Source: a virus
Length of the DNA stretch: 64,000 nucleotides
Reading direction: 5' to 3' (one strand)
IMG/VR virus record: IMGVR_UViG_3300025732_000021
Location: 32,001-96,000 of that record
Positions 3,639 through 18,194 of the stretch are shown here, piece after piece (position 1 is the first letter of the stretch; each line of letters starts with the position of its first letter). Below the pieces are notes generated by a model. That model saw only the letters and a program-made list of their open reading frames with translations, was not told the origin of the DNA and did no database searches. The position numbers and the translations under genes are program-made.

Positions 3639-3655
3639 TTTAGCAAACGCTAACG

Positions 3656-3685
3656 CCACCTGAGCAAGTGGAGGCTAAACTGCTC
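3656..3685 (+). ncRNA. pseudoknot RNA motif, copy 1
   Basis: CCAC-CT-GAGCA-A-GTGG-AGGCTAAAC-TGCTC. Confidence 0.7.
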
Positions 3686-3687
3686 AC

Positions 3688-3716
3688 TTGATTTTCTATC
3701 GTAGAAATGCTATGAT
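3688..3716 (+). promoter_or_regulatory. early promoter
   Basis: TTGATT-17 bp-TATGAT, TG extension. Confidence 0.7.
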
Positions 3717-3755
3717 AGTGTAAGACCCAAAAACCCAAAAAGAAAGGAAACACCA

Positions 3756-4178
3756 ATGGCTAGAAATGGCAAAGCGATAAATGTAAAAATCGCTACAACT
3801 AAGGTTATCAAGGCACTAGAAAGCGCACTTGATAAACTAAATAAAGACTTCGCTTCACAAGAGGCGAACGAAGCAAAGCACGACAAGGCAGTAAAGGCTT
3901 GGAACAAGGAAGTCGCTAAATTAGCACTTGATAAAATTGCTAAGGCAGAGGACTTATCTGCTCATAAGAGATACAATAACGAAATCCAAGTATCTTTCTC
4001 TCTACCTGCTGGAACTATCACGCTACCTGATGAACCCAAGAAAGACTATGTGTCTATTCATGAGTGGCAGTATCGTGAGCAGAAAGAGGAAATTGAGAAC
4101 GCAATTCGTATTCTCAAGATGACAGATGAGGAAGTAGTTTCTACTTCTACTTACAACGCTATCGCAAGATACTTGTAA
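3756..4178 (+). CDS. hypothetical coiled-coil early protein
   Basis: AAAGAAAGGA SD; 140 aa, helical. Confidence 0.8.
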   Translation: MARNGKAINVKIATTKVIKALESALDKLNKDFASQEANEAKHDKAVKAWNKEVAKLALDKIAKAEDLSAHKRYNNEIQVSFSLPAGTITLPDEPKKDYVSIHEWQYREQKEEIENAIRILKMTDEEVVSTSTYNAIARYL

Positions 4179-4184
4179 AATTAC

Positions 4185-4211
4185 TTTCCTGAGCATGAAA
4201 TAAAACTGCTT
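4185..4211 (+). ncRNA. pseudoknot RNA motif, copy 2
   Basis: TTTC-CT-GAGCA-T-GAAA-TAAAAC-TGCTT. Confidence 0.7.
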
Positions 4212-4288
4212 AAAGTTTTTCTCTCCTGATAAGCACTACTAAACAATGAAGTGATCGCAGGGTCCTTGTAGTTATTCCTGGAGAGATT

Positions 4289-4351
4289 GTCATAGCAGGT
4301 TTTGAATGTGTAATCGCAATTGCCCCTGCTATGACCACCCCCCCTTTTTTT
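4289..4351 (+). terminator. long hairpin with a downstream T-tract
   Basis: GTCATAGCAGG...CCTGCTATGAC 11-bp stem, then a C-run and T7. Confidence 0.5.
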
Positions 4352-4363
4352 GGGGCCGATCCG

Positions 4364-4379
4364 TGTGATGTAAATCACA
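4364..4379. promoter_or_regulatory. CRP/GlxR-type box
   Basis: TGTGA-TGTAAA-TCACA, upstream of the -35 at 4412. Confidence 0.6.
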
Positions 4380-4411
4380 GTCCATTATGTGAGATTATTT
4401 ACGACTTTGAT

Positions 4412-4440
4412 TTGTATTTCTGCCCTAAAAATGATATTAT
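4412..4440 (+). promoter_or_regulatory. early promoter
   Basis: TTGTAT-17 bp-TATTAT, TG extension. Confidence 0.6.
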
Positions 4441-4466
4441 TAGATTATAGAAAGAAAGGAAACAAA

Positions 4467-4742
4467 ATGATAGCAACAATGCTAGAACTACAAAACGCAA
4501 CACAAGAAGCGGTTCATGATGAAATCATAATGAGCATGGCTTCTGCTATTTATCATCACAAAGACGAAATGTCATCAGAGGAATTCGCTAGGGCTTTATT
4601 TGAGTATTCCGCAGCACTTTCAGCAATGACAACTACACTCGTGACCCATGTATTATTGACAGAATCAGAATTAGGTGTTATGCTTGATACTATTAGAGAA
4701 TTTGATGAACTAGGAAAGGATATCACAAATGGAGACAACTAA
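4467..4742 (+). CDS. hypothetical helical protein
   Basis: GAAAGAAAGGA SD at 4450-4460 fixes the start at 4467. Confidence 0.75.
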   Translation: MIATMLELQNATQEAVHDEIIMSMASAIYHHKDEMSSEEFARALFEYSAALSAMTTTLVTHVLLTESELGVMLDTIREFDELGKDITNGDN

Positions 4743-5187
4743 CGAAGTACTGGTACCTGAGCACTACAATGCAAATCAACTTGTAACTTATAAGAAGATT
4801 GAAAATGATGTAGTATCATTTCCTACTATCAAGGTTAATGACCTTGAATGGGAACTGGACCGTAAGCGCTTATTGCAAAAACAAATCGATGAACTTAATT
4901 ATACAATTAGTCGAATCACCGATAACATGACTGAGGAATCCTGGTATAACCCAAATACAGAGGCTGCAGAAATTTTAAATGATTTGTGTGAAATCCTTGG
5001 CCATAATCCAGTGAAGACAATTGATTTCACTGCAAACGTAACAATTAATGGTCAAATTGATATTCCAATGAATGAGGTCGAAGATTTTGATTTAGATTCA
5101 TTTATCTTTGATGTTGTTTCAATTGACACATATCACGGTAATGTTGAAATTCATGATTGGGACGTAAATTCTGTAGAAGAGTGTTAA
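4729..5187 (+). CDS. acidic hypothetical protein
   Basis: GGAAAGGA SD, overlaps the previous gene; 152 aa, very acidic. Confidence 0.8.
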   Translation: METTNEVLVPEHYNANQLVTYKKIENDVVSFPTIKVNDLEWELDRKRLLQKQIDELNYTISRITDNMTEESWYNPNTEAAEILNDLCEILGHNPVKTIDFTANVTINGQIDIPMNEVEDFDLDSFIFDVVSIDTYHGNVEIHDWDVNSVEEC

Positions 5188-5191
5188 ATAT

Positions 5192-5261
5192 TTGCAGGGT
5201 TCATGAAAGGCCCTGCAATGTACGCAGCATCCCTCTTTCATCCTTTCTTTCAGGGATCTGC
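5192..5261 (+). ncRNA. tandem hairpins; the second displays an anti-SD-like loop
   Basis: TTGCAGGG...CCCTGCAA hairpin, then GCAG(c)ATCCCT-[CTTTCATCCTTTCTTTC]-AGGGATCTGC. Confidence 0.5.
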
Positions 5262-5264
5262 AAG

Positions 5265-5293
5265 GGACCTGAGCATGTCCACGTAAACTGCTC
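5265..5293 (+). ncRNA. pseudoknot RNA motif, copy 3
   Basis: GGAC-CT-GAGCA-T-GTCC-ACGTAAAC-TGCTC. Confidence 0.7.
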
Positions 5294-5372
5294 CCTTCCA
5301 AAAAGTGGTCGGCCCGTTTTGTACTAAATGTCCGTTTTACGTAGTTACGAGCAAATCGCCCAAATTCAGGAC

Positions 5373-5401
5373 TTGATTTTGTCAGCCCATTGTGCTAAGA
5401 T
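5373..5401 (+). promoter_or_regulatory. early promoter
   Basis: TTGATT-17 bp-TAAGAT, TG extension. Confidence 0.65.
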
Positions 5402-5432
5402 TAGAATAACTAAAAATAGAAAGGAAATAAAT

Positions 5433-6440
5433 ATGGCTCATGAATTAGAATCTGCTAATTCTTTCGCTTCATTCCGTGAACCTGCTTGGCATGGTTTAGG
5501 AACTGTTTTTCAGGAGGAAGTTACTACTGAAAAAATGTTAGAACTCGCTAACCTTGATGGTTGGAATGTTCGTCTTGAAGATGTAGAAATCCCATCTACT
5601 CTTACATCTGATAAATCTTATCAATATGTTGTGCGTGATAATCCATTCACAGCAAATCAAGTTGATGTTCTTGGTGTTGTAGGTGAGCGTTATGTCCCAC
5701 TACAAAATGAAGAACTATTCACATTCGGTGACGCAATTCTTGATGGCGGAGGTCGTTGGGAAACTGCTGGTTCATTGCGTAATGGTCGTGTTGTATTCGG
5801 TTCTCTCGCTCTTGAGCGTGAAACTGTTCTTGACCCAAATGGCGTAGCGGATAAAATCAAAACTTATCTTCTTGTCAATACATCACATGATGGCTCAATC
5901 GCTATTCAAGCAAGCGTAACACCTGTTCGTGTTGTATGCGCTAACACTCTCGCTGTTGCGTTAGGTCGCACTAAGAAAAAGAATGGTGTCAAGCAATCTT
6001 TCAAGATTCGCCACACACAATCTGCTGAGGGTAAGGTTCAACAGGCTCGTGAGGCTCTTGCTGTTGCTAATGCCTACATGGACGAATTTTCTATCATGGC
6101 TAAACTCATGATTGAAAAAGAAATCACAGCACAACAATTCAATGATATTGTTCTTGCTGCGTATCCTAAACCTGATGAAACTAAGAAAGGCGCACTTTCT
6201 AAGTGGACAAATAAAGTTGACCTAATCAATGATATTTACACAGGTGAATTCAATGGCATGATTGCTAATACAGCATGGGGTGCTTGGAACGCACTTACAG
6301 AACGAATCGATTGGTATCGTGGTGGTAAGCGTGGTCTTACTGAATCAATTCTAATGGGTTCAAGTGGTTTTGACCCTGCTATTACAGCAGAAAAAAATCG
6401 TTTGCTAAATGTTGTTCGCAACACTTTAGAATTAGTATAA
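5433..6440 (+). CDS. DUF932 / phage-plasmid TIGR03299-type protein
   Basis: MAHELE...PAWHGLG, ETAGSL..G..VF, NTSHDGS, TPVRVVCANTL, RHT, TAWGAWNALTE; GAAAGGA SD before 5433. Confidence 0.85.
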   Translation: MAHELESANSFASFREPAWHGLGTVFQEEVTTEKMLELANLDGWNVRLEDVEIPSTLTSDKSYQYVVRDNPFTANQVDVLGVVGERYVPLQNEELFTFGDAILDGGGRWETAGSLRNGRVVFGSLALERETVLDPNGVADKIKTYLLVNTSHDGSIAIQASVTPVRVVCANTLAVALGRTKKKNGVKQSFKIRHTQSAEGKVQQAREALAVANAYMDEFSIMAKLMIEKEITAQQFNDIVLAAYPKPDETKKGALSKWTNKVDLINDIYTGEFNGMIANTAWGAWNALTERIDWYRGGKRGLTESILMGSSGFDPAITAEKNRLLNVVRNTLELV

Positions 6441-6449
6441 ACTAATTCA

Positions 6450-6476
6450 ACTCCTGAGCATGAGTATAAACTGCTC
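6450..6476 (+). ncRNA. pseudoknot RNA motif, copy 4
   Basis: ACTC-CT-GAGCA-T-GAGT-ATAAAC-TGCTC followed by a T-rich tail. Confidence 0.7.
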
Positions 6477-6549
6477 AATTTTTTATTTGACAAAAGATCA
6501 AAAAAGTGGCCGACTAAAAATATCATCTAATGTTTTTATTACGTAGGAC

Positions 6550-6578
6550 TTGACTTTTCCCCCAAATTTTGGTATTCT
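6550..6578 (+). promoter_or_regulatory. early promoter (leaderless gene at 6585)
   Basis: TTGACT-17 bp-TATTCT, TG extension. Confidence 0.6.
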
Positions 6579-6584
6579 AAATTT

Positions 6585-6746
6585 ATGACCCAAACTAAAA
6601 CACCACTATATGTGGACGAACTAATAATGAAAATCTATGAGGATAATTATTCTCATTTTGATTTTATAGAAAACATGAATGGTGGAGATTGTGATTGTAA
6701 TCTTCATTTTGCTATCAACCTTATCTACGAATATGTGAGGGATTAA
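6585..6746 (+). CDS. hypothetical 53-aa protein
   Basis: MTQTKTPLYVDELIMKIY...GGDCDCNLH; ATG 6 nt after the -10 box. Confidence 0.55.
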   Translation: MTQTKTPLYVDELIMKIYEDNYSHFDFIENMNGGDCDCNLHFAINLIYEYVRD

Positions 6747-6907
6747 TGCTAGGATATACAGTTGAGCAGGTAGAGAATATGGCTACAGTTTTAAACTATT
6801 CTTTACATCATCATATTAAGGATACTAAGTTTGCAGAGGAAGACAAAGCAGTTCTTAGAGATCTAGAAGATTTATTACTAGGATTATTAGCAGAGGGACG
6901 TGTTTGA
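6746..6907 (+). CDS. hypothetical 53-aa protein
   Basis: TAATG overlap; MLGYTVEQV...LLAEGRV. Confidence 0.6.
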   Translation: MLGYTVEQVENMATVLNYSLHHHIKDTKFAEEDKAVLRDLEDLLLGLLAEGRV

Positions 6908-6932
6908 CATCCCCTTGATAATTTGCTAGAAT
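6904..6932 (+). promoter_or_regulatory. early promoter
   Basis: TTGACA-17 bp-TAGAAT, TG extension. Confidence 0.7.
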
Positions 6933-6961
6933 AATACAAGACCTAATAGAAAGGACCCACA

Positions 6962-7648
6962 ATGCCAAATTGGTGTTATAACTATCTATCTGCGGAGGGA
7001 CCTGTAGATGAGATATCAAAACTAAAACAACAACTCAATAAACCATTCACTAAGGTTCACGACCAATGGAATCCTGAGACTGGGCAAATGGAATTGACAG
7101 AAACAACATATTCAAATCCTATATTTGCATTTCATAACATCTATAACCATATTCAAGACGGTGTATCTGAAGAAGAGTACATCAAACAACCTGACCACTC
7201 ATTACCATTAGCAGAAGCATTGAAGTTTGAGGGTAATCATTGGTACGACTGGAATGTACGCCATTGGGGAACTAAATGGGACGTTGCTGTTCATGATGAT
7301 AGAGAGTATTCAGATACTGAGATAACAGATGAAAGCGATAGTTCTATTGGTTATAAATTCAATACCGCTTGGTCTCCACCACATCCTATTATTCATACGT
7401 TGTCAGAGCAATATCCTAATATAAAGTTTACCTTATCTTATGAAGAAGAAACAGGTTGGGGTGGCGAGACTATAATTGTTGCTGGTATGGAAGAATCACA
7501 CGAATCATACGGTTGGAAATGTAGAGAATGTGACCATGCTGAGGAAGAAACACCATACTGTGAAGAATGTGATTTTGACACATGCCCTTCGTGTGGGTAT
7601 AATGAAGCAGACGAACCATGCGAGGAGCACAGAGAGGAACATCAATGA
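6962..7648 (+). CDS. DUF1281/YubB-like ferredoxin-fold protein with C-terminal Cys-rich region
   Basis: MPNWCYN, WYDWNVRHWGTKWD, FNTAWSPP motifs; three CxxC at the C-terminus. Confidence 0.8.
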   Translation: MPNWCYNYLSAEGPVDEISKLKQQLNKPFTKVHDQWNPETGQMELTETTYSNPIFAFHNIYNHIQDGVSEEEYIKQPDHSLPLAEALKFEGNHWYDWNVRHWGTKWDVAVHDDREYSDTEITDESDSSIGYKFNTAWSPPHPIIHTLSEQYPNIKFTLSYEEETGWGGETIIVAGMEESHESYGWKCRECDHAEEETPYCEECDFDTCPSCGYNEADEPCEEHREEHQ

Positions 7649-7860
7649 TTGATTATATAAAAAACTATCTTCAATTACATATGCAGTCTTTGAATCAGGA
7701 CCTAGAAGTATTATCTAATAAAATGGATGAGTTAGACCCTGCCTCAAAAGACTTTGCTGAATTAGATATTGAATATAACTTTATAAGTGGACAAGCAACT
7801 GGTATTAGCCATATAATTGCTGTAATAATGGAAAAGGAGGAAGAAAATGGAACTAACTGA
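7645..7860 (+). CDS. hypothetical helical protein
   Basis: ATGA overlap with the previous gene. Confidence 0.65.
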   Translation: MIDYIKNYLQLHMQSLNQDLEVLSNKMDELDPASKDFAELDIEYNFISGQATGISHIIAVIMEKEEENGTN

Positions 7861-8113
7861 TAATCTACAAAAGCAAGTAGACATTGGCAGCAGTGGCCTT
7901 GACATCATGCACGGTGAACTCAAATGGCTTATGAAAGAGGCTGAAGAGCAACTGGAATTAGCACAAGAAGCAGAGAACCAATCTGGGGAGGCTATGGATT
8001 CCATGGACCGCACATATTGGCAGGGACAGTTAGACGCTTTATCTCACGTATATTCTCTAACTTATCAATTATCATTCGCTATAGCAGAAAGGGAAGACAA
8101 TGGAAGAAACTAA
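7847..8113 (+). CDS. hypothetical helical protein
   Basis: GGAGG SD; YWQGQLDAL motif. Confidence 0.7.
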   Translation: MELTDNLQKQVDIGSSGLDIMHGELKWLMKEAEEQLELAQEAENQSGEAMDSMDRTYWQGQLDALSHVYSLTYQLSFAIAEREDNGRN

Positions 8114-8331
8114 AACATATGAGGTAGAAATCATTCACGAGCCTTCTGGGATCTATATGAACTTTACTACAGAACTAGAAGGAGACCATATTGATGACGA
8201 GAACGCTTGGGAATTCGTAATGGATGAACTCTCAGTTATTTGTAATAGGATAGAATAATGTATGAGCAGTTGATATTAGACCTAGAATTTGATATCATGG
8301 AAGAAAACCCTACTACCGAAAGGACCCTATA

Positions 8332-8688
8332 ATGGGAGCACGTTGTACATTCGTTTTTAAGCAATCAGAGGACCAGGCAGTTGCCTTATACAGCCATTGG
8401 GGCGAGTACTCCATGTATGAAGACCTGGCAGCAGCCTTGCAGCATGCAGCACCACGTCTTGGCGATGAGTCATACTACGTACGTATGGCTGTAAGTTATC
8501 TAATTAAGGATAGTATTATGGATGAGACTGGGTATGGAATTTATGCCTGCAATCCTAACGACCTTGGATTTATGGACCACCCCGTACTAATCGACTTAAT
8601 TAATAAGACTGTAACTGATGACACTGGGACACATTCTATACAAGATTTTATTAACTACCATAATCTTGTGACGACGGTCACATCATAA
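8332..8688 (+). CDS. conserved-type phage protein (MGxR...LYxHWG)
   Basis: GAAAGGA SD; MGARCTF...LYSHWG. Confidence 0.75.
   Translation: MGARCTFVFKQSEDQAVALYSHWGEYSMYEDLAAALQHAAPRLGDESYYVRMAVSYLIKDSIMDETGYGIYACNPNDLGFMDHPVLIDLINKTVTDDTGTHSIQDFINYHNLVTTVTS
8667..8682. promoter_or_regulatory. CRP/GlxR-type box at the gene 3' end
   Basis: TGTGA-CGACGG-TCACA. Confidence 0.4.
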
Positions 8689-8709
8689 AGAGGGTTGGGT
8701 CCCCTCTAC

Positions 8710-8753
8710 GGGAGCGCATGTTTGTCGTGGGCTTGCGCTCCCCCTTTCTTTTT
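8710..8753 (+). terminator. intrinsic terminator
   Basis: GGGAGCGCA...TGCGCTCCC stem plus TTTCTTTTT; preceded by an AGAGGG-TTGGGTC-CCCTCT hairpin. Confidence 0.7.
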
Positions 8754-8776
8754 GATACAATGATGATAGGAGAACT

Positions 8777-8992
8777 ATGATTAGACGACACAGACTAACT
8801 GACGAGGAAAAAGTTGCCATGCGACTTTCTGCCCTTGTTTCTGACCTGCGCCTTGACATCGAACAGGTTGGTGAGTATTTGGCAGTAATAGCACCAACAG
8901 TTTCCTACAACAGACTTATCACAATAGCCCAAAGCGCACAATACCACAAAGAGGAGAAATACAATGAGCAATACCAATACAGACTTTTCTGA
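8777..8992 (+). CDS. hypothetical protein
   Basis: AGGAGA SD; TG-n-TACAAT upstream. Confidence 0.7.
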   Translation: MIRRHRLTDEEKVAMRLSALVSDLRLDIEQVGEYLAVIAPTVSYNRLITIAQSAQYHKEEKYNEQYQYRLF

Positions 8993-9233
8993 TAAGTGTA
9001 ACATCTTGGGAGATTTATGGTGTAACTATAAAGGTGATGTTGACTTCTCTGACTTCATAGAGTACAATGACATTGGTTTGCCATTAGCATTTGCTATCTC
9101 ACAAGAAATTGTTCCTGCCACTGATATGGCAACTAACTATGTAAATGAAACATGGGATTTATTTTTAGAAAGCCTTGAAGTAAAAGATAAGGGTTTCAAA
9201 ACTTTAGATGAAATCCTGGGTCCACTTGCATAA
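8964..9233 (+). CDS. hypothetical protein
   Basis: GAGGAG SD; FIEYNDIGLPLA. Confidence 0.7.
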   Translation: MSNTNTDFSDKCNILGDLWCNYKGDVDFSDFIEYNDIGLPLAFAISQEIVPATDMATNYVNETWDLFLESLEVKDKGFKTLDEILGPLA

Positions 9234-9359
9234 GCCCTGAAACGGGTCGGTCAGTATTTTCAGGTTATCAAACCATTACGATATCAAACCATTTTTCCCA
9301 GATTACGATCCAAACCATTTTATGGCCAAACCATAATAAATTGTGTTATGATAGTTTGT

Positions 9360-9578
9360 ATGGCCAGACACTTTTATAGAATGAAGTATCCAAACCAAGC
9401 AAAAGATCATGATAGGTCTTTATCTAATGCCTTTGTAGCCTTTACTCATATGATTGGTTTGTCTAAGTACTTTTCCTTTACCCCGCTCGATTTTGACAGG
9501 GATGCCTGGAGGACGGCCCATGAGGCGGGGAATAAAAAAGATTACGATCATACCACTAATACCCCTAATAGTCAATAA
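9360..9578 (+). CDS. hypothetical protein within the repeat zone
   Basis: ORF track entry; possibly leaderless after TATGAT. Confidence 0.4.
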   Translation: MARHFYRMKYPNQAKDHDRSLSNAFVAFTHMIGLSKYFSFTPLDFDRDAWRTAHEAGNKKDYDHTTNTPNSQ

Positions 9579-9693
9579 CAAACCATATTTTCTGGTTTTA
9601 AAACATTTTCAAACCTTTTAAATCTTATTTCGGATTATTTCGGATTTATTTTATTTTTTGGCAATTTTCATGCAAATTCCTTTACGAAGACAC

Positions 9694-9722
9694 TTGACAA
9701 ACCATGGTTTTGCATGTATAAT
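9694..9722 (+). promoter_or_regulatory. consensus promoter overlapped by a palindromic operator
   Basis: TTGACA-17 bp-TATAAT with TG extension; AAACCATGGTTT at the -35/spacer. Confidence 0.7.
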
Positions 9723-9955: not shown

Positions 9956-10453
9956 ATGCAAAATATAGTGTTTAAAGATGTTTTTACAGATGAAGAAATT
10001 GCATCCATAAAACAAACAATCAAGGATAACTCTCACCTTAAACTGGTGGGTAAAACAATTCATCAAATTGACAGAGGCAGAGATGACTTATATCTAAACT
10101 ATATTATTGATCCTAAAATCCTAGATAAGATACAAAACTATTTAAATACATTAGGGGATTACGAACTAGGTCCTGTTACTTGGATAGAATATAATAACAA
10201 AATAACAAACCCTAATCTTCCACCACATAAAGATCCAAAAAATGTTAAATTAACATTCGACTATCAACTAGAATCAAACGTAGATTGGCCAATAGTAATT
10301 GATGATATAGAGTATCAATTAAAAGATAATGAAGCCATAGCATTTGACTCAAGATCTCAGTGGCATTGGAGACCAGAGAAAATATTTAAGGATGGGGACT
10401 ATATGCAACTTATATTTTTCTATATCAATGATCCAGATGTGGTGCTTGAATAA
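9956..10453 (+). CDS. 2OG-Fe(II) oxygenase-like protein (HWR subfamily)
   Basis: LPPHKD (HxD), FDYQLESNVDWPI, HWR distal His. Confidence 0.7.
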   Translation: MQNIVFKDVFTDEEIASIKQTIKDNSHLKLVGKTIHQIDRGRDDLYLNYIIDPKILDKIQNYLNTLGDYELGPVTWIEYNNKITNPNLPPHKDPKNVKLTFDYQLESNVDWPIVIDDIEYQLKDNEAIAFDSRSQWHWRPEKIFKDGDYMQLIFFYINDPDVVLE

Positions 10454-11419: not shown

Positions 11420-11483
11420 ATACTAAACCTTATTGACCGTATAGGTCATAAATAGGTTTGATATTTCTATTTACCGCCGAACT

Positions 11484-12362
11484 TTAAATCTTTAATTTTG
11501 AATTTATTAATTGAAGCATTTTGTCCGCTACTTCTTTATTCCATCCGCCACCTGGATGATTGTTATCTCCAGCCTTGCCCCAATACTTTATATCATGATT
11601 TCCATAATCTTTTGACAATGTTTGTGGCCACATAGTATCTAATTCAAAATACGAATCATATGATTTAGAAAAAAACTCAAAAGTATCTCTTGTTCCATTT
11701 TCCCAAAAAGTCCACAAAAATAAAACATTATTTGCTTTACATATTTGGTCAAGCATATGAATCATTGTTGTGTATATAACTAAATTATGATGAGGCAGAT
11801 AATTTTTTTTCCATGATTCTAATGTTTCTTTAATCCAACCACGTGCTGCAATAGTATATAAATTGGTTTCTATAAAACGTGACTGCTCTAAATCAAAATG
11901 AAAACCTCTGTGCATATCTGGAAAAGTAATTAATAAAACATCTGGATATCCGTATTTATTAAAAAATGTGCATACATTTTTTGTTATTAAGTGAATAGAG
12001 GCACTCATCAATGAAACATTATATTCTTCAACATCATATTTATCTCTTAAACTTTCTGCAACTACATTAGAATATCTAAATTCTTCTGGCATGTCTTGAC
12101 CAAAACCAAACGAACATCCTGATGATAGTATAGTTAATTTATTATTGCCTTTTTCAACTTTTTTAAAGTTATTTGTTCTAAAACCTTCTTTATTTATTTT
12201 ATATATTACATCGCTAACATTTTCACTCATAGTGTAATAATAATCATCTACCCATTTTCCTTTTCTTCTTAATAATGATCCGCCCATTCTTTCAGTACAA
12301 AATTGTGAAAAATCAAAAAATGAAATATTGTTTTCTATATCTTTGCTTATATTAAGTTTCAT
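11484..12362 (-). CDS. SGNH/GDSL-like hydrolase or acyltransferase
   Basis: NKEGFR, GCSFGFG (block I), DNNHPG (DxxH). Confidence 0.7.
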   Translation of the reverse strand: MKLNISKDIENNISFFDFSQFCTERMGGSLLRRKGKWVDDYYYTMSENVSDVIYKINKEGFRTNNFKKVEKGNNKLTILSSGCSFGFGQDMPEEFRYSNVVAESLRDKYDVEEYNVSLMSASIHLITKNVCTFFNKYGYPDVLLITFPDMHRGFHFDLEQSRFIETNLYTIAARGWIKETLESWKKNYLPHHNLVIYTTMIHMLDQICKANNVLFLWTFWENGTRDTFEFFSKSYDSYFELDTMWPQTLSKDYGNHDIKYWGKAGDNNHPGGGWNKEVADKMLQLINSKLKI

Positions 12363-13237
12363 ATGTTATCCTTTAAAATTTTTAAAACTCTTTCAGCAAA
12401 TAATTCATGCCATCCTCCGCCAGGATGTTTTCTATCTGCAGCCTTGTCCCAATATTGAACATCATTTTCTCTTAAATTTAATTCATCATTTATTAGGCAT
12501 TCCGATTTAAAAAATGATGGAAGTTCAACAGAAAATTTATCAAAAATATTTTGTGTCATTTTATCATAAGCAGAAAATAAAAATTTAGATCCAGAAACAT
12601 TACATAAATTTTGCAACAAATTTATATTTATAATACTTTGCAAAAATATATTTTCTGGCATCATTTGTTCCATTGAAAGTTTTCCTTCTTTAGTTCTAGG
12701 TGTTAAATCTATATAGCAATCTTCAACTGGATCGTAAGATATTGTTCTAAAAGTATCTGGAACTAACATTATTATTAAATCTGGCATTCCGTATATATTA
12801 ATAAAAGCAGATATATTTTTTATGCAAAGCATTATAGATGAACCCATAATACCTAAATTATAATAATCAATATTATATTTTTTAGATAATTCTTTTGCAA
12901 CTAATTCAGTCCAAAGCATTTCCTCAGGTAGGTCTTGTCCAAATGTAACTGAACATCCTGTAAAAAGTACTGTATATTTATTTTTATCTATATTTTTAAA
13001 ATTGTTAGATCTAAAGCCGTCTTTATTTAATTTATATTGTATTTTAAAATTTTTATGATTGGTATGAACATTTGTTGTATACAAATAATCGTCCTTCCAA
13101 AAACCTTCGCCTTTTCTTCCATCTTCTCTTGGTTTTGCATTTTCAAAAACCTTAAGCATTCTATTATTATAAATAATATTAGGGTTTAATGTTTTCCAGT
13201 TTTCAGGTCTTTCAAAAAACTTATCATCTTGTATCAT
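12359..13237 (-). CDS. SGNH/GDSL-like protein, tandem paralog
   Basis: NKDGFRS, GCSVTFGQDLPE, DRKHPG; likely leaderless start after TATAAT. Confidence 0.7.
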   Translation of the reverse strand: MIQDDKFFERPENWKTLNPNIIYNNRMLKVFENAKPREDGRKGEGFWKDDYLYTTNVHTNHKNFKIQYKLNKDGFRSNNFKNIDKNKYTVLFTGCSVTFGQDLPEEMLWTELVAKELSKKYNIDYYNLGIMGSSIMLCIKNISAFINIYGMPDLIIMLVPDTFRTISYDPVEDCYIDLTPRTKEGKLSMEQMMPENIFLQSIININLLQNLCNVSGSKFLFSAYDKMTQNIFDKFSVELPSFFKSECLINDELNLRENDVQYWDKAADRKHPGGGWHELFAERVLKILKDNI

Positions 13238-13648
13238 GTATACCATTATACTTGACTTTTGAATTAGCATAAGATATAATGATTATATGAATGTTACTTA
13301 TTTACACCCCTTTTGGCTCATTGCTGCTATGATAGCAGGGTGGGTTGTTTGTTATATTCAAATGAAATATGGTAAAAATGACAGGGAATAGAGTAGTCAT
13401 ATGCAGCACGTGTAAAAAAGAAATCGAATTGCGTTGGGGAATATTTGGTCACGATGCATTGTCTAGACACATGAAGGAGCATAAATGAAATCATACAGAT
13501 TTGATGATTTAGATAATGAAGGATATGAAATTGAAATACCTTCTGATATTGTAAAAGACATAATAATAGATCATCTTAGAAAAACATATTATTGGCCAGT
13601 TGCCATACTTTCATTTATTATAGGTATTTTATTAGGAGTTTTAGTATC

Positions 13649-14011
13649 ATGAGTAATTTATTTGAAGACACCGTTAGAATTAATAAATCCCGTCCACCAT
13701 TAAGATGGGTTGCAGATTTATTTGGAGATGTAGCAGGCTGGGCAATACTTCGTATTTCATATTTAGATGAATCAAAAGATTTAGGAATGATGTATCAATT
13801 TTATTCTTTTGTTTGGCGAATGACATGGCCACTATATAATAAGTTTGGCACTGTATATAAATGGGATTTTGATATGAGCGGTGACGGGTGGAATGATTAT
13901 GATGAAGATGGAATACCTTATTGGGAGAAGCCAGACTTTATTGATGCATTTGTTTGGGACTTTGAAGATGAAGAAACAGGCGATGCTTTTAGAGTTTTAA
14001 ATAAAGAATAA
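13649..14011 (+). CDS. hypothetical protein
   Basis: AGGAG SD before ATG 13649. Confidence 0.55.
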   Translation: MSNLFEDTVRINKSRPPLRWVADLFGDVAGWAILRISYLDESKDLGMMYQFYSFVWRMTWPLYNKFGTVYKWDFDMSGDGWNDYDEDGIPYWEKPDFIDAFVWDFEDEETGDAFRVLNKE

Positions 14012-14018
14012 AACTCAT

Positions 14019-14092
14019 GGAGCAGTAGCCAAGTTGGTCAAGGCCCCGAACTCATAATTCGGTTATCGTAGGTTCAAGTCCTACCTGCTCTA
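14019..14092 (+). tRNA. tRNA-Met(CAT) (Ile2 not excluded)
   Basis: GGAGCAG/CTGCTCT acceptor; CCGAA-CTCATAA-TTCGG; GGTTCAAGTCC. Confidence 0.9.
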
Positions 14093-14096
14093 CTTT

Positions 14097-14170
14097 GGAA
14101 TATGGCTGGCTGGTGGTCAGAAGGTGTCTTATAAGCATCTTAGAGTTTGGTTCAATTCCAAAATATTCTA
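14097..14170 (+). tRNA. tRNA-Ile(TAT), G:U-rich stems
   Basis: GGAATAT/ATATTCT acceptor; GGTGT-CTTATAA-GCATC; TTTGG-TTCAATT-CCAAA. Confidence 0.7.
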
Positions 14171-14171
14171 C

Positions 14172-14244
14172 GCCCTTGTAGCCCAGTGGCAGAGGCACAC
14201 GACTTAAAATCGTGCAAGCGTTGGTTCGAATCCAACCAAGGGCA
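14172..14244 (+). tRNA. tRNA-Leu(TAA), short variable arm
   Basis: GCCCTTG/CAAGGGC; CACGA-CTTAAAA-TCGTG; GGTTCGAATCC. Confidence 0.9.
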
Positions 14245-14248
14245 CTAA

Positions 14249-14320
14249 ACCTCTGTAACTCAGTGGAAGAGTAGCGGACTTCTAATCCGTTTGTCGATGG
14301 TTCGAATCCATTCAGGGGTG
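14249..14320 (+). tRNA. tRNA-Arg(TCT)
   Basis: ACCTCTG/CAGGGGT; GCGGA-CTTCTAA-TCCGT; GGTTCGAATCC. Confidence 0.9.
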
Positions 14321-14334
14321 CTACAATTAAACAT

Positions 14335-14410
14335 TGGTCTGTAGTTCAGTTGGTAGAACACTCGACTGTTAATCGAGATGTCGCAGGATCGAGACCTGCC
14401 AGACCAGCCA
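14335..14410 (+). tRNA. tRNA-Asn(GTT)
   Basis: TGGTCTG/CAGACCA, encoded CCA; CTCGA-CTGTTAA-TCGAG; atypical T-loop ATCGAGA. Confidence 0.9.
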
Positions 14411-14411
14411 A

Positions 14412-14488
14412 GGTCCGTTAGTTCAGTTGGTTAGAACGCTACCCTGTCACGGTAGAGGTCGTCGGTTCAAGTCCGATACGGATCGCCA
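14412..14488 (+). tRNA. tRNA-Asp(GTC)
   Basis: CTACC-CTGTCAC-GGTAG; GGTTCAAGTCC; encoded CCA. Confidence 0.9.
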
Positions 14489-14489
14489 A

Positions 14490-14562
14490 GTCTCCATGGT
14501 CTAGAGGCCTAGGACTCCACCCTTTCACGGTGGCAACACGGGTTCGAATCCCGTTGGAGATA
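14490..14562 (+). tRNA. tRNA-Glu(TTC)
   Basis: CCACC-CTTTCAC-GGTGG; GGTTCGAATCC. Confidence 0.9.
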
Positions 14563-14563
14563 C

Positions 14564-14635
14564 GCCTCCTTAACTCAGGGGTAGAGTACTCGCCTTGTAA
14601 GCGAGTTGTCGTAGGTTCAAATCCTACAGGAGGCT
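14564..14635 (+). tRNA. tRNA-Thr(TGT)
   Basis: GCCTCCT/AGGAGGC; CTCGC-CTTGTAA-GCGAG. Confidence 0.9.
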
Positions 14636-14661
14636 CGTAATACTAAACAAAAGGAGAAAAT

Positions 14662-14883
14662 ATGAAACCAGGAATAATTGTAATGGTTATTAGTGATGAT
14701 CATAATGACAAAAAGGCTGCAGAAGTATTATCTGTGGATAATGATTTGTGTACAATAAAAATGTGTGATACTCAAGAAATTATAAAAATGAATCAATCAA
14801 ATTTAAAACGTAAAAAATTATGTGTATGTAATACTTCAAAAAATAAACCATTTTGTGATGGATCTCATTCATTAATGTTTTAG
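14662..14883 (+). CDS. CDGSH iron-sulfur domain protein with N-terminal KOW-like segment
   Basis: CVCNTSKNKPFCDGSH fits C-x-C-x2-S-x3-P-x-CDGSH. Confidence 0.85.
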   Translation: MKPGIIVMVISDDHNDKKAAEVLSVDNDLCTIKMCDTQEIIKMNQSNLKRKKLCVCNTSKNKPFCDGSHSLMF

Positions 14884-15629
14884 TTATAGTTTTTACTTTC
14901 TATTACTATACAAATCTGATCACTCATAATTCTAGTATTAGTATTAAAATATTCTTTTAAATTATCCAATGTATTATGAATAACTTTTTCTGTATCCATA
15001 GTTAAGTTATAACAAAGAGATGCCCATCTGTTTTCCCCTAGTATTTCACATGCTTCTTCTAAAAACTCTGGTATTTCATTATGAAATTCTTGTCCTCTTT
15101 TTACATTTCTAAGCATTATAACCATTGGATAATTGTAGTCTTTTCTTTCTTTTAAGAATTGAATTCTTTCATTTTTTACAAATGGCAAAAAAGATTCAAA
15201 TATAAAATTATGCATAGTTCCAGTAACTGCTACTGCAGCCATAACAACAGAAGGTCCTGGTGTTGATGTCACATGTATTCCTTCAGCAATACATTTTTTA
15301 ACTATCCTTGCTCCTGGGTCTGCTACCCCTGGCATACCTTCATCTGAAATTAAGAATACATCTTCTCCATTTTTTAATAAATCAATTATTTTATTCATGT
15401 TATGAAGTTCGTATGCTTCTCCAGGTTCTCCGCCATCAGAATCATACTCAATGGATATAGTATTGACATTTGGTTTTTGCATTCCAAGTGCGGGCCAAAT
15501 TCTTTCAAATGCCTCTTCTCTTTCTATCACTATATTTTTTGCATTTTGAATATATTTAAATGCTCTTACTGACATATCTTCCCAATTGCCAATAGGCAAT
15601 CCAACTAAATATAATTTTCCAAACGACAT
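14880..15629 (-). CDS. RsmI-like SAM-dependent (tetrapyrrole-methylase fold) methyltransferase
   Basis: GKLYLVGLPIGNWEDMSVRA, LISDEGMPGVADPG, TPGPS. Confidence 0.85.
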   Translation of the reverse strand: MSFGKLYLVGLPIGNWEDMSVRAFKYIQNAKNIVIEREEAFERIWPALGMQKPNVNTISIEYDSDGGEPGEAYELHNMNKIIDLLKNGEDVFLISDEGMPGVADPGARIVKKCIAEGIHVTSTPGPSVVMAAVAVTGTMHNFIFESFLPFVKNERIQFLKERKDYNYPMVIMLRNVKRGQEFHNEIPEFLEEACEILGENRWASLCYNLTMDTEKVIHNTLDNLKEYFNTNTRIMSDQICIVIESKNYN

Positions 15630-15664
15630 ATATTCATTATACACTATGGTATAATTTTAATATT

Positions 15665-16327
15665 ATGAAAACTCCAGAAAAAGGTCCAGCATATAATCAA
15701 TACATTGAATTAAAAAACTCTCAAACTCCTATTTCTAATCAAGATTTTGAGCCAATAATTGTAGATAACATATTTTCAAAAGAAGATATAGATCATTTAT
15801 ATGAAATAATTAATAACACTCCAGAAGAAAAAACTCAAATACAAAAATGGGGCGGAATGAAAGCATGGCATATAGACTTAGGGCCAAGAATAAAAGATAA
15901 AATTAATGAGGCAGTCAAAAAATCTTTAGGCGACCATGTTCGCTTAGTAGAAGATCACTCATTTGCTAGATATAGTATGGAATATGGATGGATGACAAAG
16001 TTATTTCCACATACAGATATGAGAGATAAACAAAGAATTACTTTTGATATTCAGGTGCATGCTGATGAAGAATGGGGAGTAGTTGTTGAAGATGTAGAAT
16101 ACTTTTTACAAGATAATCAAGCATTAGTATTTGCTGGGACGCAACAGCCACATTGGCGTAGAGCAAAAGAATTAAAACCAGGAAGTCATCAAGACATGAT
16201 ATTTTGTCATTTAGAATATGTTGATGATGTACCTTATGATGACGGTCAAGATCAAATATTACATGAAAGAAATAAGTTCTTTTCTGAATATTACGATATG
16301 CATCCAGACCCAACAACTTTTTATTAA
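15665..16327 (+). CDS. 2OG-Fe(II) oxygenase-like protein (HWR subfamily)
   Basis: LFPHTD, ITFDIQ, LQDNQALVFAGTQQPHWR. Confidence 0.7.
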   Translation: MKTPEKGPAYNQYIELKNSQTPISNQDFEPIIVDNIFSKEDIDHLYEIINNTPEEKTQIQKWGGMKAWHIDLGPRIKDKINEAVKKSLGDHVRLVEDHSFARYSMEYGWMTKLFPHTDMRDKQRITFDIQVHADEEWGVVVEDVEYFLQDNQALVFAGTQQPHWRRAKELKPGSHQDMIFCHLEYVDDVPYDDGQDQILHERNKFFSEYYDMHPDPTTFY

Positions 16328-16328
16328 T

Positions 16329-16502
16329 ATGGACAATATAGAAGAGTCAATTAAAAATGTTCTTTTTCAAATTGGAAAAGATATAAAGGTACATAAATTA
16401 ATAGATGGTAACTTAATATTAGATATTGATTATGATAAATATACAAAAGAAATAGTAGATATTTGTAATAAACATATAGAAAGAAGAAAAGGTGTTTGGT
16501 AA
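16329..16502 (+). CDS. hypothetical protein
   Basis: MDNIEESIK..., between coupled genes. Confidence 0.55.
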   Translation: MDNIEESIKNVLFQIGKDIKVHKLIDGNLILDIDYDKYTKEIVDICNKHIERRKGVW

Positions 16503-17253
16503 ATTACATCTAATTGGATCTCCAATTGGCAACATGTTGGATACATCTCAAAGGTTATTAAATGCATTTAATGACGCTAAATATATATGCGTTGAAGATA
16601 TAGATAGATTTAAAGAATATTGTTCTTTTAATAATTTTATATATAATGCAGAACTAATTGATATATGTTTTTCGTTAAACAATAACAGAGAAAACGAAGT
16701 AAAAGAAAGAATAATTTCAATTTTAAAAAATGGCGAGGATGTTTATATAATATCTGATGAAGGTATGCCTGGTCTTGCAGATCCTGGTACTATACTTGTT
16801 GATGAAGCAATTAAAAATGATATACAAATTATAACTACTCCAGGGCCATCTGTTGCTCTTGCTGCAGCATCATTATCCAATATATTAAATAACTTTTTAT
16901 TTGAAGGCTTTATGCACAGCGTAGATGAAGAAAGACATAAAAAGTTTGAATTTTTAAAAATGTCTCCTGTTCCTATGATTTTTTTATTACATAATTCAAA
17001 TCATAGACCAATTGATAAAGAAGATAAAATACACATGCTTCATAATTGTTTTGATCATGATATTTTTATTAATGAATGTATTACATTTTTTGGCGAAGAA
17101 AGAAAAGCAGTTTTTTGTATTGATTTAACTACAGATCATCAAAAAGTAATTCGTAGTACTTTAAAAAATATAAAACAATATATAGATCAAAATAAAATAT
17201 TTGGCAATTTATGCATTGTGGTAGATGGAATAAATAATAATTTATCTATTTAG
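16492..17253 (+). CDS. RsmI-like methyltransferase, second copy
   Basis: GKLHLIGSPIGNMLDTSQR, ICVED, IISDEGMPGLADPG, TPGPS. Confidence 0.85.
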   Translation: MFGKLHLIGSPIGNMLDTSQRLLNAFNDAKYICVEDIDRFKEYCSFNNFIYNAELIDICFSLNNNRENEVKERIISILKNGEDVYIISDEGMPGLADPGTILVDEAIKNDIQIITTPGPSVALAAASLSNILNNFLFEGFMHSVDEERHKKFEFLKMSPVPMIFLLHNSNHRPIDKEDKIHMLHNCFDHDIFINECITFFGEERKAVFCIDLTTDHQKVIRSTLKNIKQYIDQNKIFGNLCIVVDGINNNLSI

Positions 17254-17395
17254 TATCTTTTTTATATTCTCCATATTTACCAAGAATTGCTTTAATTGTA
17301 CCGTCTTTTCTTAAGCGTACAACATTACCATTCTTAATTTGTATGGGATTAAATCCATCGTGCCTTTTGTATGAACCAGATGATTTTTTAGACAT
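17246..17395 (-). CDS. small basic protein (49 aa)
   Basis: MSKKSSGSYKRHDGFNPIQIKNGNVVRLRKDGTIKAILG...; translated by hand. Confidence 0.55.
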   Translation of the reverse strand: MSKKSSGSYKRHDGFNPIQIKNGNVVRLRKDGTIKAILGKYGEYKKDTK

Positions 17396-17398
17396 ATA

Positions 17399-18142
17399 TC
17401 ACCAAATTTCTGTTATTCTTTCTGTTTTTGAAATTATTTTTCCAAAACCTTCAAACAAAGTTTTTTCTACTGGTACACAATTTGGAACCATTTTGCCGTT
17501 TTTTTCTTTCATTCCTCTTTGTACATATCCTTCCCAGCATGGATTTGCTTTATTTACATCCCCGCAGCAATCGCCCTTCATTTCATTGGCTTGACAAACT
17601 GGACATAAATCACAGCACACATTCATATCTTTACATGTAGGACATCCGCAACCATCATATGTACAGGGGTCATTAGACGATTGACCAACTACAGAAATAT
17701 CTTCTTTTATAACTTCAGTCTTGTCCATATTTTCATTTAATTCAAGTGATGGCATTATCATTATATCTTTTGCTTTTGCTCCAACAAAATACTCTGTCTC
17801 TTCAAGTTCGCCATCTTCCATTTCAAATAACTGAATTAAAATAGCAGGATCTTCTGAAGATGCTTCAATAGAATATTCAGATCCTGGCATTCCAAGCATA
17901 CCTTCTGTCATTACGTGAACTACACGACCAACATACATTTCTTCTTCATGTGGGGCCATAACCATATCGCCCTCTTTAACCATGGCCTTACCTATATTTC
18001 CTTCAGATCTATTGATTGCATAAATTTGTCCTGCTGCTTCTTTTTTTGTTTTATGGCAGCCCATGACTTCTCCAGTACTGGTTTTAACTGCAGGGTAACC
18101 AGAACATCCGTGAGATCCTTTAGCACCTACTTTATAAGGCAT
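17399..18142 (-). CDS. modular Cys-rich protein, possibly virion-associated
   Basis: N-terminal GCSGYPAVK...MGCHKTKKEA module, Cys cluster, C-terminal PCWEGYVQRGMK..GKMVPNCVP motif. Confidence 0.7.
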   Translation of the reverse strand: MPYKVGAKGSHGCSGYPAVKTSTGEVMGCHKTKKEAAGQIYAINRSEGNIGKAMVKEGDMVMAPHEEEMYVGRVVHVMTEGMLGMPGSEYSIEASSEDPAILIQLFEMEDGELEETEYFVGAKAKDIMIMPSLELNENMDKTEVIKEDISVVGQSSNDPCTYDGCGCPTCKDMNVCCDLCPVCQANEMKGDCCGDVNKANPCWEGYVQRGMKEKNGKMVPNCVPVEKTLFEGFGKIISKTERITEIW

Positions 18143-18165
18143 AAACCCATTATATCATCAAATAA

Positions 18166-18194
18166 GAGCAGTTTAACCACATGCTCAGGTGGTT
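18166..18194 (-). ncRNA. pseudoknot RNA motif, copy 5 (3' of hsp20)
   Basis: Minus strand: AACCAC-CT-GAGCA-T-GTGGTT-AAAC-TGCTC. Confidence 0.7.

Follow-up and report, generated by a model that had tools for sequence, protein, structure and literature searches.

A covarying H-type pseudoknot behind phage genes and its possible role as a roadblock at message ends

What is a small RNA knot doing behind several genes of one phage genome, and why does the same knot recur far outside it? The question is raised by a 64,000-nucleotide stretch of IMG/VR record IMGVR_UViG_3300025732_000021 (its bases 32001-96000; hereafter the window, numbered from its first base), in which a first-pass annotation made from the letters had noted five copies of an H-type pseudoknot, at 3656-3685, 4185-4211, 5265-5293 and 6450-6476 on the plus strand and at 18166-18194 on the minus strand. 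The record comprises 121,867 bp at 33% G+C and has the look of a tailed phage, with a portal, a protease, a 2,661-aa tape-measure-like protein, DNA polymerase III alpha and ribonucleotide reductase. All five copies were confirmed at these places and on these strands; they are 27-30 nt long and are exactly the copies found in the window and in the whole genome. The pattern CTGAGCA-N(8-20)-AACTGCT matched the window five times against 0.00 expected from 100 shuffles, and over all 121,867 bp it returned the same five, its reversed control returning none; looser pattern scans gave no further credible copies. A covariance model (R1) trained on the copies of other phages and run over the window with filters off recovered only the five (26.3-48.3 bits, E <= 5e-5), the next match scoring 11.6 bits.

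The knot consists of a stem 1 (P1) of about 4 bp with a closing C-G pair, a one-base loop 1 (C), a stem 2 (P2) of 5-6 bp, (U)GAGCA/UGCUC(A), one junction base that is mostly U, and an A-rich loop 3 ending in AAAC; the loop enclosed by stem 1 is CUGAGCAU, 8 nt. In the window, P1 differs from copy to copy and pairs in every one, exactly as annotated, and P2 is GAGCA/UGCUC in all copies except the second. Copy 1 (3656-3686, +, 26.3 bits) pairs CCAC with GUGG around the loop CUGAGCAA, has a linker, AGGCUAAAC, 3 nt over the standard length, and ends in UGCUC followed by A; it begins 18 nt past the stop of a small SH3-like gene (3471-3638), and a promoter-like site follows 2 nt on, at 3688-3716. Copy 2 (4185-4212, +, 42.0 bits) is of standard length, with P1 UUUC/GAAA and P2 GAGCA/UGCUU, including one G-U pair, and begins 6-7 nt past the stop of a gene for a 140-aa protein (3756-4178). 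Copy 3 (5265-5294, +, 28.1 bits), with P1 GGAC/GUCC and a linker 2 nt over standard, begins 78 nt past the stop of an acidic-protein gene (4729-5187). Copy 4 (6450-6477, +, 47.8 bits; P1 ACUC/GAGU, standard length) begins 10 nt past the stop of a DUF932 gene (5433-6440) and is trailed by a U-rich stretch. Copy 5 (18165-18194, -, 48.3 bits; standard length) has a 6-bp P1, AACCAC/GUGGUU, begins 47 nt past the stop of an Hsp20-like gene (18242-18661, -) and ends 24 nt ahead of the next minus-strand gene start (gene 17399-18142). The upstream stops end at 3638, 4178, 5187 and 6440 on the plus strand, that of the minus strand occupying 18242-18244, so every copy lies sense to the gene upstream and 6-80 nt past its stop, as had been claimed. 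The further claim that each copy lies before the next promoter stands for copies 1, 3 and 4, behind which consensus promoter-like sites follow at 2, 85 and 73 nt (those of copies 3 and 4 at 5379-5407 and 6550-6578); no such site scored behind copy 2, and the extended -10 element of copy 5 (TGATATAAT) was recognised by eye only. Between 3300 and 6800 there is no canonical terminator, against 2.0 expected. Among the first nine bases behind the knot, six are T in copies 4 and 5, five in copy 2 and four in copy 1.

The fold can be judged on many more copies than these. The strict pattern CCTGAGCATG-N(3-12)-AAACTGCT gave at least 133 matches, in at least 118 loci of IMG/VR, and a still stricter pattern matched at least 119 loci in prokaryotic contigs and metagenome-assembled genomes (MAGs; one genome per species); the counts on fold, placement and context that follow (n=150 to 232) were made on the matches listed in those collections. 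At least three contiguous P1 pairs (3-7) are kept in 146 of 150 unique copies, so homologues do retain the pairing on which the annotation had staked its structure; with the partner strand shifted by 1-2 nt, no pair forms in 117-150 of the 150 and never more than three do. The closing C and G of P1 occur in 99% and 98% of these copies, neither being imposed by the pattern, and AAAC in all 150, of which the pattern imposed AAC only. For P2 we used 184 unique candidates, extra copies in the same loci that were picked by P1 pairing, CCT, G and AAAC regardless of P2: all five pairs form in 179, and the compensated variants include AAGCA/UGCUU, GAGUA/UACUC, GAACA/UGUUC, GGACA/UGUCC, AGACA/UGUCU and AGGCA/UGCCU.

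A gap-free alignment (A1) of 114 unique standard-length copies, namely all such copies from viral loci and three of the five in the window, gives the same picture. Of its cells, 99.8% pair, two-sided changes occur in seven of nine pairs, and the covariation score is 0.531 against 0.136 in shuffles (reached by none of 500) and 0.04-0.13 with slid partners. A1 was selected on P1 pairing, so that for stem 1, which covaries in three of its four pairs, only the diversity of the pairs counts as evidence; stem 2 was unselected, and there 99.6% of cells are paired, with two-sided changes in four of five pairs. One row, L069:2730, is probably a chance match and contributes a few rare stem-2 types. The element is thus an H-type pseudoknot, both stems of which covary across more than 100 unrelated phage copies, and G-U pairs, for example GAGUA with UGCUC in 9-11 copies, identify the folded strand as the sense strand; selection on a single-stranded structure, as first proposed, is borne out. 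Nested folding suggests that the loop U joins the A behind UGCUC in a sixth stem-2 pair; 76% of 229 copies, and 68% of the 150-copy set, have A there. About 17 of the 28 positions are nearly invariant in hosts from Patescibacteria to Methanobrevibacter, and by analogy loop 3 would lie in the minor groove of stem 1. Variants have longer linkers, a junction of 2-4 nt or, in one subclass, the ending AAAAGGCUC. At the junction of stem 2 and stem 1', L034:3080-3146 (-) carries an extra hairpin and L057:7539-7578 (+) an insertion of 4 nt, so this junction tolerates insertions.

The knot is new to Rfam 15 and to the phage and prokaryote literature searched. At gathering thresholds, Rfam 15 matched only seven tRNAs in the whole window, and at E <= 10 it gave four weak, unrelated matches in 3400-6700, none on a knot; riboswitch and ribozyme models, including hammerhead, pistol, twister and preQ1-I, had no match on the knots, in keeping with the annotator's failure to place the element in a known family of either kind. 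Literature searches by sequence strings, which gave only primers, and by topic (phage pseudoknots, mRNA stability, phage exoribonuclease-resistant RNA) returned no description of the element in phages or prokaryotes. It is absent from the main texts of the Minerva preprint and of PMC10690425, whose 10,006 supplementary candidates may include the motif; the strings 'bacteriophage' and 'prokaryot' are absent from PMC10520033, and 'phage' from PMC10321173.

Where the knot stands relative to genes bears most directly on its function. For 210 copies, the flanking genes are co-oriented with the knot in 125, convergent (+,-) in 25 and divergent (-,+) in 10. Among 217 copies with an open reading frame (ORF) of at least 40 codons ending nearby, the invariant C lies 8-12 nt past the stop codon's end in 80, with 23 at 8 and 22 at 9, and 0-7 nt past it in 4; expressed as the spacer from the stop to the first paired base, there is a sharp minimum and mode at 5 nt. 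Five nucleotides is the reach of a downstream structure to the mRNA entrance when the stop codon occupies the A site, as with the ribosomal helicase and the spacers of frameshift signals. Of 17 apparent ORFs that end within the knot, mostly doubtful frames of 40-50 codons, 12 use its internal stop triplet, which is UGA in 11. On the other side, a start preceded by a Shine-Dalgarno (SD) sequence lies 13-40 nt downstream in 66 of 216 copies, and among the matches listed 13 copies stand 3-12 nt before a tRNA gene and none within 60 nt behind the end of one. Counted symmetrically over 207 copies, the end of the upstream ORF alone is close in 67 and both genes are close in 80.

The 28 nt behind the knot also have a character of their own. 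They are G-poor (3-10% G at positions 2-8), enriched in T and less structured than controls. Their mean minimum free energy is -1.65 kcal/mol (controls, -2.57 and -3.4), and 36 of 224 copies, as against 63 of 224 control windows, have a hairpin of 4 bp or more that starts 0-3 nt past stem 2. At least six T in nine bases follow 29 of 229 knots and precede 4 of 229, and a T run of at least four is found behind 52 and ahead of 13 of the 229. These tracts are not tied to unit ends: they occur in 33 of 142 copies at unit ends and in 14 of 66 before close starts. Slippery heptamers (X XXY YYZ) numbered 27 over eight spacings in 232 copies (at most 7 at one spacing), compared with 13 in the upstream control, and a hammerhead core was found beside the knot in 1 of 221 copies downstream and 2 of 221 upstream.

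The knot keeps company with the gene ahead of it. Counted by contigs, the families upstream are DUF932 (23), Hsp20 (18), the 140-aa protein (16), the SH3-like protein (15) and the acidic protein (13), and the followers vary. When homologues of the five window genes were collected across all loci and copies were detected by pattern, the knot was kept behind 20 of 22 DUF932, 19 of 20 Hsp20, 16 of 23 140-aa, 13 of 22 SH3-like and 2 of 6 acidic-protein homologues; L182, L179, L033, L071 and L249, negative by pattern, have a variant knot at the place. Seven loci without a knot carry instead a GC hairpin of -20 to -32 kcal/mol with a TATAAT-like -10 box 0-10 nt on (TGCTATAAT in four of them). Hairpins (-20 to -27 kcal/mol) occupy that place in most knot-less SH3-like and 140-aa homologues, and both knot-less DUF932 homologues, L121 and L022, have a GC hairpin with a T-rich tail. 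Nothing suggests more strongly that the knot acts as a 3'-end structure than the presence of hairpins and terminators at orthologous places. In related phages seen in RNA contigs (runs X16 and X17; compared over window 3000-4210), the 140-aa gene and its knot are followed after about 25 nt by a match to window 3198 onward, so that the gene order is rearranged at the knot.

The carriers are diverse. Among the matches listed, prokaryotic carriers belong to Patescibacteria/Saccharibacteria, Chloroflexota, Aminicenantes, Actinomycetota, Cyanobacteria, Bacillota, Bacteroidota and Pseudomonadota, and archaeal ones are two Methanobrevibacter MAGs and one Woesearchaeota MAG; some 12 prokaryotic matches are coincidences in coding sequence without P1 pairing, for instance in sigma-54 activators. 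A BLAST search of GenBank with one copy found matches in 140 phage records, about 85 of them from Staphylococcus phages, others being Synechococcus S-EIVl, Nostoc NMeng1, Mycobacterium Labelle, Arthrobacter Molivia, crAss-like cr7_1 and phage D6E. Two of the 140 were inspected individually: in vB_Sau_IS1 a variant knot lies between two head genes, 9-10 nt past the minor head protein gene, and in mycobacteriophage Labelle a canonical knot lies 6-7 nt past gene 85 and 180 nt before a tRNA. A distinct unit recurs in 14 MAG loci (L158, L161, L199, L213, L163, L178, L208, L224, L198, L169, L195, L211, L234 and L247), with a promoter-like box, an SD sequence, a tiny ORF of about 18-20 codons whose stop lies within the knot or shortly ahead of it and, at many of these loci, an intrinsic terminator about 25 nt past the knot. 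The tiny ORF is conserved (e.g. MKRFTMPRTAHCSEGCKLKS, or a variant ending HCSACGSMR), and synonymous changes argue that it is translated; it matched no NCBIfam family, a search that did not extend to the large protein databases. Knot sequence also occurs within spacers of two confirmed CRISPR arrays, with 11 and 37 repeats (L193:212-236 and L251:929-953), so hosts target this conserved phage sequence; L146, first taken for a further spacer, has no array. At three Firmicutes-type loci (L172:887-911, L235 and L181) the knot adjoins the 5' end of the Rfam DUF2800 RNA (RF02960, 121-157 bits).

The closest studied look-alike is the plant-virus motif coremin (xrRNA-C, an exoribonuclease-resistant RNA) of beny-, cucumo- and other eukaryotic RNA viruses, which often stands in several copies behind genes, according to the sections of PMC6546385, PMC10520033 and PMC10321173 that bear on it. 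In those of PMC6546385 it consists of a hairpin of 3-4 bp with a C-G closing pair and a YGAD loop, a conserved spacer of about 10 nt, three A's of which are essential, and a second hairpin, and it stalls Xrn1. Passages of PMC10520033 add that loops of 6-8 nt occur (the 6-nt form being YGNNAD), with one octaloop tolerated under another sequence rule, and that scanning ribosomes are blocked. A Watson-Crick form (xrRNA-WCC) pairs loop bases with spacer bases 18-20 and has a loop-1 base that cannot be changed; in the parts of PMC10321173 describing it, the second hairpin is needed for Xrn1 resistance and dispensable for frameshifting by the Watson-Crick form, and both forms stimulate -1 frameshifting, an effect that emerged from an E. 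coli screen.

Laid on this model, the phage knot reads as a first hairpin (hp1; 4 bp, C-G closing), C, UGAGCA, U, hp1', NUAAA, C and UGCUCA. The two agree in the rule for the hairpin, the C of loop 1, the linker and the C at the junction, and stem 2 of the phage knot is longer by about four pairs. Both have a first hairpin of the 3-5-bp type, of variable sequence with a C-G closing pair, a pyrimidine (C in the phage) as one-base loop 1, loop bases that pair with the 3' part of the linker, a pyrimidine or A opposite the conserved C at the junction, and a place in untranslated stretches behind genes, often in several copies. The linker (U)UAAAC-U is common to both (UUAAACUAC in coremin, NUAAACUGC in the phage), and its three A's, essential in coremin, are invariant in the phage. 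The antiparallel Watson-Crick stem 2 and single-pyrimidine loop 1 of xrRNA-WCC are likewise found in the phage knot. However, the phage loop, at 8 nt, has its G at position 3, whereas YGAD and YGNNAD need it at position 2; its stem 2 has 5-6 Watson-Crick pairs against 2-3, partly non-canonical, in coremin and 3 in xrRNA-WCC; a second hairpin (hp2) is absent behind it; and it is carried by DNA phages and mobile elements whose hosts, bacteria and archaea, lack Xrn1. Given the longer stem 2, the other loop register and the missing hp2, we do not file the phage knot as a coremin and regard it as a variant of such knots, to which its likeness may be due either to common descent or to convergence.

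Our preferred reading, which we hold tentatively and at somewhat short of even odds, is that the knot is a compact roadblock capping the 3' end of the upstream message. Each copy would be transcribed within the mRNA, fold into the compact H-type pseudoknot and act as a small mechanical roadblock of the coremin or Watson-Crick coremin kind. In this phage it would close short early units, each made up of promoter, gene and knot, where canonical terminators are missing, standing just beyond the footprint of the terminating ribosome. Read-through transcripts would then be cut in the unstructured, G-poor stretch behind the knot, or by RNase P before a tRNA, and 3'-to-5' exonucleases would trim back and halt at the knot, leaving the upstream message with its stop codon and a protected end. 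An RNase P cut at a following tRNA would leave the upstream RNA with the knot and a short tail. The fold (through covariation), the spread of the knot, its position and its replacement at orthologous places are established; its tertiary contacts, the cutting behind it and its resistance to any nuclease are what we infer. The 3' cap is favoured because the knot travels with the upstream gene, because hairpins and terminators replace it, and because of the convergent contexts and the knot-before-tRNA arrangement. The obstruction of exonucleases and ribosomes by coremin would explain the need to keep the knot out of the ribosome's path; taken with the sharp 5-nt limit, the simplest reading is that the knot must avoid that path and stay folded. 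The mRNA 3'-end device suggested by the annotation is thus the best-supported reading, on the strength of the DUF932 and Hsp20 homologues, the orthologous hairpins and the 67 copies close to an upstream end alone, and the knot probably marks and protects message ends.

Several observations weigh against this reading. Only the downstream start is close in 38 of the 207 copies and neither gene in 22, and within the window the next start is what copy 5 lies nearer to, and copy 3 has no gene close by. Folding is weak in the nested part, at -4.3 to -7.9 kcal/mol, as against -20 to -32 kcal/mol for the hairpins that replace it. In most MAG contexts the knot overlaps or abuts the stop codon and a canonical terminator stands behind it; lying between a tiny ORF and such a terminator, it is no terminator substitute, and there a 3' cap seems superfluous. 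In the relevant parts of PMC6546385, PMC10520033 and PMC10321173, only 5'-to-3' movers (Xrn1 and ribosomes) are shown to be blocked by coremin and its Watson-Crick form, and hp2, which both require for nuclease resistance, is absent from the phage knot. The very strong sequence conservation across host phyla fits recognition by a factor or ligand as well. Finally, the early genes are covered by four metatranscriptome runs, available as contigs only, and RNA contigs of relatives bridge knot 2 into the next gene, so that the knot is probably no obligatory RNA end. Two RNA contigs end 6-10 nt past a knot (X15 record 1 at 3691 and X19 record 25 near 5303); contigs cannot show RNA ends and DNA carry-over is possible, so neither the ending nor the bridging ones decide anything, and stretches that the contigs leave uncovered carry no weight.

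The main rival uses the same roadblock in the other direction: the knot would shield the downstream RNA by stopping 5'-to-3' decay that arrives from the upstream cistron, through RNase J, archaeal RNase J/CPSF or 5'-end scanning by RNase E. That coremin blocks a 5'-to-3' exonuclease, and that H-type knots of this sort resist unwinding from the 5' side (in the parts of PMC6546385, PMC10520033 and PMC10321173 on the subject), speaks for it, as do the 66 copies ahead of SD-preceded starts, the 38 with a start alone close by, the 13 directly before tRNAs and the three adjoining DUF2800 RNA. Yet with long spacers the knot is more often near a stop (67) than near a start (38), and in the 25 convergent copies no same-strand gene follows it. 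In this window promoters follow the knot, so that the next gene's own transcript would be without one, and RNase P would separate a knot from its tRNA; what replaces the knot at orthologous places is a terminator, or a hairpin ahead of a -10 box, and the hp2 needed for Xrn1 resistance is missing. We consider a downstream shield unlikely, at roughly one chance in four, although capping and shielding may both be true of one roadblock. Obstruction could also be aimed at ribosomes, the knot stopping read-through, sliding or scanning ribosomes past termination and so uncoupling cistrons or protecting structured RNAs behind it. The 5-nt minimum and mode place the structure at the mRNA entrance with the stop in the A site; the machinery is common to bacteria and archaea, tRNAs or DUF2800 RNA follow some copies, and coremin blocks scanning ribosomes and stimulates -1 frameshifting, in the E. 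coli screen too (in the passages of PMC10520033 and PMC10321173 concerned). But any function that needs a folded knot gives the same spacing, and the next start is also close in 80 of 207 copies, where coupling is normally useful; with no conserved slippery site or read-through frame, and with copies far from any stop left unexplained, such an insulator seems improbable.

A binding site or catalytic RNA, whether an aptamer for a universal small molecule or a conserved protein or a tiny self-cleaving or RNase-P-guiding motif, would account for the some 17 near-invariant positions among 28, for the conserved unpaired C, U and AAAC, and for flanks selected to be unstructured. In size and topology the knot recalls the smallest riboswitch aptamers. 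However, no Rfam riboswitch or ribozyme matched it even at E <= 10, RNA contigs cross it, it has neither an expression platform nor a conserved neighbouring gene, and the counterparts of its conserved bases are needed for the coremin fold itself (PMC6546385 and PMC10321173), so we give this explanation little credence; the self-cleaving RNA that the annotation had listed among its options fares no better, as no ribozyme model matches. Its terminator option gains little either. A non-canonical terminator made of the knot and a U-rich tail would fit the T enrichment behind the knot, the six T in nine behind window copies 4 and 5, the want of canonical terminators in 3300-6800 and their replacing the knot behind DUF932 in two relatives. 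The U tract is nevertheless missing from most copies, T tracts are no commoner at unit ends than before close starts, MAGs have a canonical terminator about 25 nt past the knot, and RNA contigs bridge it. We know of no termination mechanism common to bacterial and archaeal polymerases, and hold the idea very improbable. Least credible of all is a joint at the DNA level for modular gene shuffling, as proposed for stem-loops of T4-type phages, with the RNA fold secondary. Gene order does differ at knot boundaries between relatives, as where RNA contigs link the 140-aa gene and its knot to the window 3198 region; the neighbours of a given gene-plus-knot cassette vary, and promoters adjoin, as they do the stem-loops treated in parts of PMC4122927. 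But P1 varies between copies, so that identical stretches are only about 10 nt each, the one-strand G-U covariation marks selection on a folded sense RNA, and the knot also occurs in elements without such cassettes.

Other classes were considered and set aside. An N4-like hairpin promoter for a phage RNA polymerase, prompted by the copies shortly before starts and tRNAs, is opposed by the bacterial and archaeal carriers and by the fold of the sense RNA; moreover, no RNA polymerase family was matched in the 14 largest ORFs, the set scanned (4 against Pfam and 10 against PHROGs), two of which had no match at all, the smaller ORFs lying outside the scan. A MotA box or UP-element was rejected on the same grounds. 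Integron attC-like and IS200/IS605-like single-stranded DNA sites were rejected on the general features of those systems, an integrase or transposase having been sought only among large ORFs. A -1 frameshift or read-through signal is contradicted by the lack of a slippery site and by the stop codon ahead of the knot, and the intrinsic terminator class by the 0 sites in 3300-6800 and by at least six T in nine behind only 29 of 229 copies.

Beyond coremin, the knot recalls several other systems. The frameshift knots of luteo- and poleroviruses, of the beet western yellows virus (BWYV) type, are also about 28 nt long and H-type, with a short loop 1 containing C, one junction base and an A-rich loop 3. 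The phage knot differs from them in following stop codons, with neither an enriched slippery heptamer nor an apparent overlapping -1 frame, and in its longer stem 2; the passage of PMC10321173 on the BWYV knot calls it comparable in dimensions to coremin hp1 plus spacer and not Xrn1-resistant. The promoter early stem-loops (PeSLs) of T4-type phages are promoter-terminator cassettes between early genes (PMC4122927, in the parts describing them); there too, small conserved structures and promoters form units between small variable early genes, and cassettes are shuffled, much as relatives of this phage have a plain hairpin and a TATAAT-like -10 box 0-10 nt on at the places of the knot. A PeSL is, however, a simple stem-loop of T4-like myoviruses, whereas the knot is conserved in sequence, reaches beyond one phage group and is often promoterless; by family scans of its large ORFs, the phage of this window is not T4-like. 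With protective 3' stem-loops and intrinsic terminators the knot shares its position past the stop and is interchangeable at orthologous places, but it has no long GC stem, a U tract only in a minority, a weak nested energy and conservation across phyla. Hammerhead ribozymes are said to punctuate phage and prophage operons as small RNA modules between cistrons that define RNA ends; the phage knot, by contrast, has no hammerhead core behind it and no ribozyme model match.

It is conceivable, though we would put it at a little under an even chance, that in the knot prokaryotic viruses have a genuine exoribonuclease- and ribosome-resistant RNA, the first xrRNA class for DNA phages, a relative or convergent twin of coremin and a universal punctuation that sets where mRNA decay and ribosomes stop. 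If so, a single fold of 28 nt would be effective against unrelated nucleases across the three domains of life. A roadblock of this kind would mean that programmed nuclease resistance extends beyond eukaryotic RNA viruses and is a general device of prokaryotic viruses too, and it would explain how discrete, stable messages arise in phages whose early genes are many and small and, in at least part of that region, have few terminators. It would also be of use in engineered operons, as a host-independent part of 28 nt that stabilises or insulates cistrons, and its hundreds of natural covarying variants, some in cultured carriers, would open the unsolved fold and mechanism of coremin to study. In annotation, the knot would be useful as a phage marker.

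Some minor features of the window remain to be recorded. A GC-rich hairpin without a U tract (tgcaggg...ccctgca, 5194-5220, +) comes immediately after the acidic-protein gene, 45 nt ahead of knot 3, so that a hairpin and a knot stand together in this unit. Another short motif, AAAAAGTGGYCGRC, occurs on the plus strand at 5300-5313 and 6501-6514, 7 and 25 nt past knots 3 and 4 (two matches against 0.05 expected), and strings resembling it lie behind knots in L013 and L056 too. Two weak model matches were taken as chance, probably so for the one at 10112-10148 (+; 10.4 bits, E 0.7), inside ORF 9956-10453, and outright for that at 17100-17138 (-); at the former an alternative stem 2, AGAUA/UAUUU, is fully pairable and the CU and AAAC signatures are present. 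No cultured relatives of this phage were found by megablast of 3000-9000 or by tblastn of the 140-aa protein, and the DUF932 matches, distant actinophages, are uninformative on its relatives. Seven tRNA genes (60-70 bits each) are clustered at 14019-14635 (+), with no knot ahead of the cluster. The PHROG family of tryptophan halogenases, an unusual cargo for a phage, is matched twice, at window 25135-26679 (-; E 1.6e-138) and at genome 95664-97172 (-; E 5.7e-90).

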